The notes: a model not told the origin generated them from the sequence alone. Positions 61,992 to 62,790 are shown, numbered from the stretch's first letter. The stretch is DNA of 64,000 nucleotides from an uncultured Candidatus Saccharibacteria bacterium (GCA_964473815.1 CAYYQK010000002.1:41128-105127), one strand, 5' to 3'. Program-made: numbers and translations.

Positions 61992-62768
61992 TCATTGGAG
62001 GCGCGAGCGGGAATCGAACCCGCGCATAGAGATTTTGCAGATCCCCGCGTTACCATTTCGCCATCGCGCCTTAATAATATTGTATTTACTTTCATGGTCA
62101 ACCCACTTATTATATTCTAAAAAAAACTTTTTGAATATAGTGTATTTGCGACTTAAAAATACATTTTTAGAATCACTATACAAGTACTTAAATATTTTTA
62201 CACTATCGTTGGTTGAGTATGCAAGTCGATAGGAATTGTGCCAACCTTTATATATTTTATTTATTTTCAGATCTAATTCATAGCATAAAAGTTCTGCTAA
62301 CGCTTTTAGGAAATCAGAACTACCAGAAATAAACACAACAATTAATTTACTAAACTTATCTCTGTTCTTTGTAATACTAACATGCCCATCTCCATCGAAA
62401 TAACCTCTCACAAAATGTTGGATATGTTTTTTTGGAATGTCGGGAAGTTGCATGGTTAGGGATTTGTTCGGATATAATCCGAGCTTCGTAAGATCGTCAT
62501 AGATTTTATGACTCCCAATTCGTAGTAAATATTTCCATTTATGTTTAGGTGTTTTTGGCTTAATGCGTACAATTGAGTGAGCCGAATCTAATATTTGTTT
62601 AGTTAATAAAATTAATTCCATATCAGCACTGGTTAGTCGCAAATATTTTCCTCGTAAATACGAAGCATCTTCTAGGCTGCCATCAGCATAAATATATCCT
62701 AAAAGATATGCCATTTCTGGTGACCACCTTTCAAACAATTTCTCATTGCAATAGTACTTTACACCCAT
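61992..62768 (-). CDS. LAGLIDADG-family homing endonuclease (double-motif). The reading frame continues through the tRNA-Cys gene.
   Basis: Two motifs, LLGYIYADGSL and VRGYFDGDGHVS. First ATG at 62768 (the track uses TTG at 62786). The stop at 61992 lies beyond tRNA-Cys (61996-62070). Confidence 0.75.
   Translation of the reverse strand: MGVKYYCNEKLFERWSPEMAYLLGYIYADGSLEDASYLRGKYLRLTSADMELILLTKQILDSAHSIVRIKPKTPKHKWKYLLRIGSHKIYDDLTKLGLYPNKSLTMQLPDIPKKHIQHFVRGYFDGDGHVSITKNRDKFSKLIVVFISGSSDFLKALAELLCYELDLKINKIYKGWHNSYRLAYSTNDSVKIFKYLYSDSKNVFLSRKYTIFKKFFLEYNKWVDHESKYNIIKARWRNGNAGICKISMRGFDSRSRLQ
61996..62070 (-). tRNA. tRNA-Cys (anticodon GCA), 75 nt, CCA encoded.
   Basis: GGCGCGA/TCGCGCC acceptor, anticodon arm GGGAT-CTGCAAA-ATCTC, T-arm GCGGG-TTCGATT-CCCGC, discriminator U. 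Confidence 0.9.
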
Positions 62769-62790
62769 AAGAGGATATAATAGCAAAATA
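62071..62790 (-). mobile_element. AT-rich segment carrying a free-standing homing-endonuclease gene inserted immediately 5' of tRNA-Cys. Putative mobile HEG.
   Basis: Visibly lower GC than flanking DNA, bounded by the 62835-62868 terminator and the tRNA gene. No intron, intein or transposase features seen. Confidence 0.4.

Follow-up and report, generated by a model that had tools for sequence, protein, structure and literature searches.

Group I introns that carry homing endonucleases are found in bacterial transfer RNA (tRNA) genes, such as those of cyanobacterial tRNA-Leu(UAA) and tRNA-fMet. A homing endonuclease gene (HEG) can also be free-standing amongst tRNA genes. SegB of phage T4 is encoded by such a gene in a tRNA cluster, and cuts the tRNA genes of phage that lack segB (PMC2330249; PMC2988022); maturation of tRNA-Arg severs the last codon of segB from the stop codon, and this was proposed as a restraint on its expression (PMC2330249). 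Promoters embedded in the HEGs of T4 have been described, and it was argued that they help the endonuclease gene to be retained (PMC2988022). In the bacteria of the candidate phyla radiation (CPR) LAGLIDADG genes occur within insertions in 16S and 23S ribosomal RNA (rRNA), many of them in group I introns (PMC11270868; PMC11809585). Here we analyze a stretch of 64,000 nt from an uncultured Candidatus Saccharibacteria bacterium (GCA_964473815.1 CAYYQK010000002.1:41128-105127), which we term the window. Its minus strand carries an open reading frame (ORF) for a LAGLIDADG_3 homing endonuclease that lies directly 5′ to the gene for tRNA-Cys(GCA) and continues through the whole of it. By analogy, the best reading of this gene is as a chromosomal LAGLIDADG counterpart of T4 SegB.

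The likeness to SegB lies in a free-standing endonuclease gene within a tRNA operon, in the presumed targeting of tRNA gene sequences in relatives that lack the endonuclease, and in a stop codon placed where maturation of the tRNA would part it from the ORF. Yet SegB is a GIY-YIG enzyme encoded by a phage, in a gene that lies between two tRNA genes of the cluster, whereas the family of the window is of the LAGLIDADG class, resides on bacterial chromosomes and is always found 5′ to tRNA-Cys. Moreover, cleavage and homing have been shown for SegB, but for the window family they are predictions. The LAGLIDADG genes of the CPR rRNA insertions share the host phylum, the superfamily and a conserved RNA gene as landing place. 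Those insertions interrupt the RNA gene, however, while the tRNA-Cys family leaves it intact and occupies the leader; tRNA-linked copies are not mentioned in PMC11270868 (from which the word tRNA is absent) or in PMC11809585. As with the group I introns of tRNA genes we have a homing element tied to a tRNA gene, and here tRNA-Leu(UAA) is the neighbour, but there is no intron and both tRNAs of the window are continuous. A full-text literature search found no description of a LAGLIDADG family located in the tRNA-Cys leader. The enzyme class is the ordinary single-chain LAGLIDADG; what is new is the obligate address in the leader of tRNA-Cys, and a stop codon that is usually supplied by the tRNA.

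How general is this arrangement? A protein search returned 613 relatives, the best 120 of which share 46–66% identity. For all 10 homologous proteins with available DNA (that of the window included) the gene adjoins tRNA-Cys(GCA) directly on its 5′ side, and in nine of these loci tRNA-Leu(UAA) comes next after tRNA-Cys. The pairs of HEGs with DNA are all at or below 74% amino acid identity, and their host contexts vary, some being syntenic with the window (S1, a gene of the metallo-beta-lactamase fold and gyrA) and others having quite different neighbours. Named relatives of both the S1 protein of the window and the HEG are Patescibacteria, including Doudnabacteria and Parcubacteria. In a profile search of the whole library there were 27,354 representatives at E ≤ 0.001 and 801 at E ≤ 1e-30, and the tRNA-Cys subfamily is the top of this very large LAGLIDADG_3 superfamily. 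Linkage to tRNA as a general property of LAGLIDADG_3 was considered and rejected, because among viral relatives taken as a control (28–37% identity) just one of 79 abuts a tRNA. On the available sequences this is a subfamily of the Patescibacteria (CPR) seen nowhere but in the 5′ leader of a tRNA-Cys(GCA)–tRNA-Leu(UAA) operon. The original prediction was of a mobile, free-standing gene that had homed next to a tRNA gene. The free-standing character and a polymorphism of presence and absence are borne out below, but the gene did not land there by chance; a whole CPR subfamily occupies this position as its fixed niche.

The lone viral exception is found in L205 (2498–3220), an IMG/VR contig of 427 kb from a very large phage; here the leading gene of a tRNA cluster is tRNA-Trp, and a LAGLIDADG_3 ORF extends exactly to its first base. 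A more distant group of LAGLIDADG ORFs (26–38% identity) is placed directly 5′ to tRNA-Leu(UAA) in three loci. In L048 (~3290–3860) and L110 (4926–5582) the ORF lies in the spacer between tRNA-Cys and tRNA-Leu, and in L062 (3746–4420) it is 5′ to an oppositely oriented tRNA-Leu; in L110 and L062 it ends 0–3 nt before the tRNA.

We have compiled the junctions between ORF and tRNA for 18 distinct occupied loci, eight of which were found through the tRNA itself. The stop codon falls within the D-arm of the tRNA in 12 of the 18, as TAG at nt 16–18 in the D-loop (11 loci) or TAA at nt 21–23 (one locus). The entire tRNA is read through in two loci, the window and L140/L141, the latter known from two samples. 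A stop ahead of the tRNA is far from universal, occurring 0–12 nt 5′ to tRNA-Cys in just four loci; in the other 14, the window included, the stop codon is at or past the 5′ processing site of the tRNA. The C-terminus G-x-V-V-K, which is tRNA nt 1–15 in translation, is present in 46 of the best 120 homologues. Other homologues terminate in A-x-W, where x matches known acceptor stems, as would be expected for a stop at the UGA of nt 11–13 in the next frame, and long tails in P0030, P0090, P0124, P0141 and P0166 are recognisable translations of the anticodon and T-arms. These junctions indicate that ending inside tRNA-Cys is the norm for the family, with full read-through a minor variant that recurs independently elsewhere, as shown by DNA for L140 and by the tRNA-shaped tails for several other proteins. 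The original prediction had been that processing of the tRNA would generate a non-stop mRNA from the window copy. The stop does indeed lie past tRNA +1 here, but overlap is the rule (14 of the 18 loci), and since the stop is usually in the D-arm its loss on processing by ribonuclease P (RNase P) would concern most members and not the window alone.

In the window, the frame is open as far as 61992, as first noticed, and residues 234–258 of the protein, some 25 codons, are encoded entirely by tRNA-Cys sequence. G1 of the tRNA completes a lysine codon of the ORF (aaG GCG CGA TGG CGA). Members of the family with this entry frame normally stop at TGG TGA, using the UGA at nt 11–13. The D-stem of the window tRNA is GGCGA...CGC as against GGTGA...CAC elsewhere, a compensated change from U11:A24 to C11:G24, by which UGA has become CGA, so that the frame is open to the first stop past the CCA. 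The C11:G24 pair is common to the HEG-less relatives L222 and L136, and thus belongs to the lineage of the tRNA rather than to the HEG. Nor are 25 open codons across a tRNA improbable per se, because two of the three frames through the window tRNA-Cys are open, including the one that is used; frame 0 would yield ...GAMAKW followed by a stop. The last ~10 residues before the tRNA differ from those of L004 in both frame and length, with a net difference of 4 nt, which fits a poorly constrained C-terminal linker. Full read-through is best seen as a by-product of the evolution of the tRNA, tolerated in an ORF that lacks its own stop codon. The loss of the usual stop and the altered residues preceding the tRNA might alternatively mark the window copy as a decaying pseudogene, or the read-through as an artefact of assembly or frameshift, but to this we give hardly any credence. 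The DNA of the locus recurs with zero mismatches in three further assembled contigs, so that the read-through is not an error of assembly. In addition the ORF is full-length with every family-invariant residue, its core is modelled confidently (see below), and its frame is also used by those family members that have A-x-W tails.

We conclude that the ORF is an intact gene for a single-chain, two-motif LAGLIDADG homing endonuclease, with predicted nuclease activity. The double-motif protein described at the outset is confirmed by a match to PF14528 LAGLIDADG_3 in two stretches (E = 2.5e-15; 56.9 bits against a cut-off of 22.5), and in an alignment of 16 homologues M1, D29, D127 and both motifs are invariant. 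The start requires correction. The feature had been begun at 62790, and an ORF caller lists 61992..62786 (−) with a TTG start at 62786, yet every homologue begins MG(I/V)KY and we therefore place the start at the ATG at 62768. An AlphaFold model (AF2, using 16 homologues) has a predicted local distance difference test score (pLDDT) of 81.8 and a predicted template modelling score of 0.80. It contains two repeats of a helix plus beta-hairpins, in the tandem alpha-beta-beta-alpha-beta-beta-alpha fold of LAGLIDADG proteins. Foldseek comparison of the model with the PDB gave 115 matches at E ≤ 0.001, of which the best 50 are all LAGLIDADG enzymes, maturases or endonuclease-bearing inteins, led at a probability of 1.0 by I-Tsp061I, I-AniI, the bI3 maturase and enzymes of the I-OnuI type. 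A profile search of solved structures selects the archaeal intron-encoded I-Tsp061I (E = 1.6e-5), which is the best match by sequence as well as by structure. The protein shares with the group of I-Tsp061I, I-DmoI, I-AniI and I-OnuI the two motifs with catalytic aspartates, LAGLIDADG_3 and the predicted fold, but the genes for those enzymes reside within rRNA or mitochondrial introns while the gene of the window is free-standing, and its sequence identity to the archaeal and organellar single-chain enzymes is 12–20%. Residues 232–258 have pLDDT < 50 and the tail is without counterpart in most homologues; the 25 residues encoded by the tRNA are predicted to be disordered and are most likely functionless.

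The gene sits between a terminator and a tRNA, and is free-standing, with a putative promoter of its own and neither intron nor intein (Table 1). It is co-directional with, and directly 5′ to, tRNA-Cys(GCA) as originally described, the two tRNAs being placed by ARAGORN and Rfam. An intron context was explored and rejected: searches of Rfam at the gathering threshold and at a permissive threshold (E up to 1) detected no intron family at the locus, revealing the two tRNAs and sub-threshold hairpin noise alone, and the flanking tRNAs are intact as had been stated. The bounding terminator, previously given as 62835–62868, is a hairpin at ~62832–62870 that belongs to the upstream gene. It forms the left border of the intergenic niche, and homologues of it precede occupied and empty sites alike. 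The first terminator downstream of the HEG is the hairpin that follows tRNA-Leu, with equivalents in L004 and L222. The AT-richness of the segment is confirmed, the DNA of the HEG outside the tRNA having a GC content of 31.1% compared with a mean of 42.3% for the window (standard deviation 2.9%, in 698-bp windows); it is the lowest-GC 698-bp stretch of the 64 kb. Across the family, the GC content of the HEG is below that of its flanks in 16 of the 18 loci (means 34.1 and 43.7%).

Table 1. Features of the tRNA-Cys locus, in coordinates of the window.
Feature	Position	Strand	Remarks
Upstream gene, 230 aa, function not assigned	63585-62893	(−)	
Intrinsic terminator of the 230-aa gene	62832..62870	(−)	terminator scan; hairpin −27 kcal/mol, then U-run
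Promoter-like site, TTGAAC-17-TATTAT, TG extended −10	62777..62805	(−)	ends 8 nt 5′ of ATG
LAGLIDADG_3 homing endonuclease ORF, 258 aa	61992..62768	(−)	ATG 62768 to TGA 61994-61992
Enzyme core, residues 1 to ~231 of the ORF			residues 234-258 are tRNA-encoded
LAGLIDADG motif 1, LLGYIYADGSL	62673..62705	(−)	catalytic Asp29, invariant in family
LAGLIDADG motif 2, VRGYFDGDGHVS	62376..62411	(−)	catalytic Asp127, invariant in family
Promoter-like site in 3′ end of ORF, TTGACC-16-TATTAT	62074..62101	(−)	10/12 matches; candidate tRNA promoter
tRNA-Cys(GCA), CCA encoded	61996..62070	(−)	ARAGORN and Rfam; wholly overlapped by the endonuclease ORF
TGA stop of the endonuclease ORF	61992..61994	(−)	2-4 nt beyond the CCA end of tRNA-Cys
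tRNA-Leu(UAA), intact, without intron	61899..61985	(−)	ARAGORN and Rfam
Terminator hairpin and U-run 3′ of tRNA-Leu	61858..61898	(−)	−18.6 kcal/mol

How is the gene distributed amongst species that have the same tRNA? We scanned one genome per species with a 23-nt core of tRNA-Cys, finding at least 120 loci, almost all of which are from the CPR. Among the matches listed, 112 species have 800 nt or more upstream of tRNA-Cys, and 11 of these carry the HEG; in the HEG-less loci the spacer of the leader is at most 354 nt long, with a median of 42 nt. Spacers so short leave no room for a decayed copy, and searches by tblastn and by profile gave no significant remnant of a degenerate HEG in 101 empty sites once tRNA-coded residues were set aside. 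The orthologous loci whose comparison had been proposed fall into both states. Loci L004, L010 and L006 are occupied, and in L004 the S1 protein is 88%, the neighbour protein 73% and the HEG 65% identical to that of the window. The closest relatives found, L222/L223 (S1 92% identical), L135 (86.5%) and L136, are empty; a metagenome scan with alignment of the neighbour protein supplied two loci, both serving as empty sites. The empty loci L222, L135 and L136 keep the same neighbour gene, the terminator and a TTGAAC/T −35 element, followed by TAAAAT and a leader of 17–34 nt. In a second clade L054 is occupied and L071 empty, with flanks that are homologous on both sides. Here ~0.75 kb takes the place of a 36-nt leader, and homology restarts at tRNA +1. 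Polymorphism for presence and absence at one homologous site is found in both clades, and the data fit a mobile or frequently lost element at a single fixed site.

A 14-nt match between the empty locus L135 and the 3′ end of the L004 ORF was considered as the footprint of a deleted HEG, and rejected because it does not rise above shuffled sequences. Two other HEG-less loci, translated over the ~100 nt preceding tRNA-Cys in the frame leading into the TAG of the D-loop, give ...DYFRRRPAKIDAKVERMVRLITTGHVVK (L127) and ...SRVDKRVENVLLYGRHGHVVK (L134). Matches of these leaders to the C-terminus of the HEG have E = 3e-5 in tblastn, falling to E = 0.32 in a profile search among 321 peptides when the tRNA-coded residues are omitted; as relics of deleted HEGs they are suggestive only, the match not being significant without those residues.

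The same data bear on the possibility that this is a domesticated LAGLIDADG protein, inherited vertically and no longer mobile, with a host role tied to the tRNA-Cys/tRNA-Leu operon, such as an RNA chaperone, a maturase-like protein or a regulator of tRNA transcription. The strictly conserved position would be expected of such a protein, as would the intactness of every copy and the 101 empty sites free of pseudogene remnants, and the identity of the HEG to that of the window (65% for L004, 62% for L006 and 58% for L010) follows the divergence of the hosts loosely, without clear agreement or conflict across the four loci that have both the HEG and host markers. LAGLIDADG proteins can be RNA maturases, and both the bI3 maturase and I-AniI rank among the top structural matches. 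On the other hand the gene is present in just ~10% of the species with the same tRNA-Cys among the matches listed, and the closest relatives found are empty with an otherwise identical locus structure. Both catalytic aspartates are invariant, the GC content is strongly deviant, and there is no intron on which a maturase might act. We consider domestication to be unlikely.

We turn now to the signals for expression. Most occupied loci have a conserved TTGCAG-17-TATAAT-like motif 0–8 nt 5′ to an ATG or GTG start, without a Shine-Dalgarno sequence. A near-exact form of this motif ~730–750 nt upstream of the tRNA is restricted to HEG-containing loci among the matches listed. No Shine-Dalgarno sequence precedes the ATG of the window; since the promoter-like site ends 8 nt before that ATG, the mRNA of the HEG would be leaderless or nearly so. 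The same −35 element (TTGAAC, TTGAAT or TTGAAA) follows the terminator in the empty loci L222, L135 and L136 and in the occupied L004, and the similarity of L136 and L004 across the terminator and −35 is significant; in the clade of the window, the cassette seems to use the promoter of the operon itself. Inspection of the sequence and a terminator scan of the window found no terminator between the ORF and tRNA-Cys, and transcripts of the HEG would consequently run into tRNA-Cys and tRNA-Leu. Of the 18 homologous ORFs, 12 have within their final 90 nt a promoter-like motif that matches at 9 or more of 12 positions, where shuffled sequences give an expectation of 3.6, and such a site at the 3′ end of the ORF could drive the tRNAs separately.

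It might be supposed that the overlap of ORF and tRNA is itself a selected regulatory device, in which synthesis of the endonuclease needs the unprocessed precursor and the non-stop mRNA is cleared by trans-translation. The same idea was put forward for T4 segB (PMC2330249), and it would agree with the location of the stop past the RNase P site, seen in 14 of the 18 loci and in about half of the best 120 protein tails, and with the lack of a terminator between ORF and tRNA. Overlap is not required, however, given that four of the 18 loci and many protein tails stop just before the tRNA. The position of the stop depends on what the sequence of the tRNA happens to provide, tails from read-through have arisen repeatedly, and the pattern is equally well explained by the compaction of streamlined genomes, so that we regard selection for such a device as very unlikely.

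Our preferred reading, which we think likely to be correct, is of a free-standing homing endonuclease cassette that belongs to a tRNA-Cys-leader family. The cassette of ~0.75 kb comprises a putative promoter 0–8 nt before the start codon and the ORF, without a 3′ untranslated region. The ORF ends within 12 nt of tRNA +1 or takes its stop from the tRNA, whether the UAG of nt 16–18 in the common A18-type D-loop, the UGA of nt 11–13 or a UAA within nt 19–23. The enzyme would cut HEG-less alleles in or beside tRNA-Cys and repair would copy the cassette in, and such homing would account for its sporadic presence at one fixed site. Transcripts would enter the tRNAs, where the cut of RNase P at tRNA +1 would strip off the stop codon and thereby hold the output of endonuclease low, and the 3′ end of the ORF may supply a promoter for the tRNAs.

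Several points weigh against this reading. Cleavage and its target site, homing, the non-stop mRNA and the embedded promoter are inferred. Occupied alleles retain a whole, intact tRNA and would have to escape self-cleavage. The lack of degenerate copies in 101 empty sites is unusual for a purely selfish cycle of gain, decay and loss, although deletion may be fast in streamlined genomes. The identities of the HEGs roughly track those of the hosts, and long vertical residence with repeated loss is as compatible with this as repeated gain. Finally, the −10 element of the internal promoter-like site ends 3 nt before tRNA +1, a spacing that fits poorly with transcription beginning there.

The tRNA-Cys genes of the CPR fall into two types at the elbow. 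An xGG D-loop is combined with a UUC T-loop in 60 loci and xAG with UGC in 60 loci (L015–L134), with no mixed types among the matches listed in this set, which fits a replacement of G18:U55 by A18:G55. A literature search found no paper on covariation of an A18:G55 elbow. The tRNA-Cys of the window (61996–62070) is of the canonical type, with G18G19 and U54U55C56, together with the C11:G24 pair in the D-stem. Uncorrected for phylogeny and among the matches listed, the HEG accompanies 10 of 56 A18-type alleles as against one of 55 canonical alleles; A2:U71 is present in three of the 10 A18-type alleles with the HEG and none of the 46 without (Fisher p = 0.004), and an extra T in the D-loop in five of the 10 and four of the 46, respectively. 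In the clade of the window, again without correction for phylogeny, three of four occupied sites are of the A18 type and three of three empty sites are canonical. The acceptor stems with A2:U71 (GACCACG...CGTGGTC) are those of L057, L079 and L090. We rejected the notion that the UAG of the D-loop evolved for the HEG, because among the matches listed the A18-type D-loop with UAG is HEG-less in 46 of 56 cases. The proposal that co-conversion during homing spread the A18:G55 or A2:U71 alleles of tRNA-Cys in Patescibacteria, with a switch based on RNase P and non-stop decay limiting the endonuclease, strikes us as rather unlikely.

Some further observations were made at these loci. L023 (~1880–2153; OZ244961.1, a complete Paceibacterota chromosome) has a truncated tRNA-Cys that extends from the 5′ end through the T-stem, ~125 nt upstream of an intact copy, the two starts being ~195 nt apart. 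One metagenome-assembled genome contains two HEG–tRNA-Cys loci, L021 (DATDVS010000043.1) and L079 (DATDVS010000028.1), which could reflect two tRNA-Cys genes or a mixed bin. Just beyond the tRNA-Leu terminator of the window is a 108-aa acidic ORF (61474–61800, minus strand), which gene callers fused with tRNA sequence to give a 173-aa product; a Pfam-type scan found no family for it, the match to DUF1699 being far under threshold. Elsewhere on the minus strand of the window (55674–55750) there is a tRNA-Ile with the anticodon UAU, and L110 has one too. Bacteria seldom have an isoleucine tRNA with this anticodon, and normally rely on a CAU tRNA modified with lysidine to read AUA.

The large family described here has a single fixed address beside a very conserved target, the 23-nt core of tRNA-Cys being identical in at least 120 species. 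It provides a natural system in which to study the persistence of free-standing homing endonucleases in streamlined bacterial chromosomes, and, as a set of related LAGLIDADG scaffolds whose target region can be predicted, it should be of use in enzyme discovery. For annotation it gives the rule that ORFs of the tRNA-Cys-leader family legitimately end inside a tRNA. The idea of stop removal by tRNA processing that was raised for T4 segB would be extended to bacterial chromosomes and to the LAGLIDADG class. The family also illustrates how structural evolution of a tRNA, through a compensated stem change or a variant of the elbow, rewrites the C-terminus of the protein that overlaps it.

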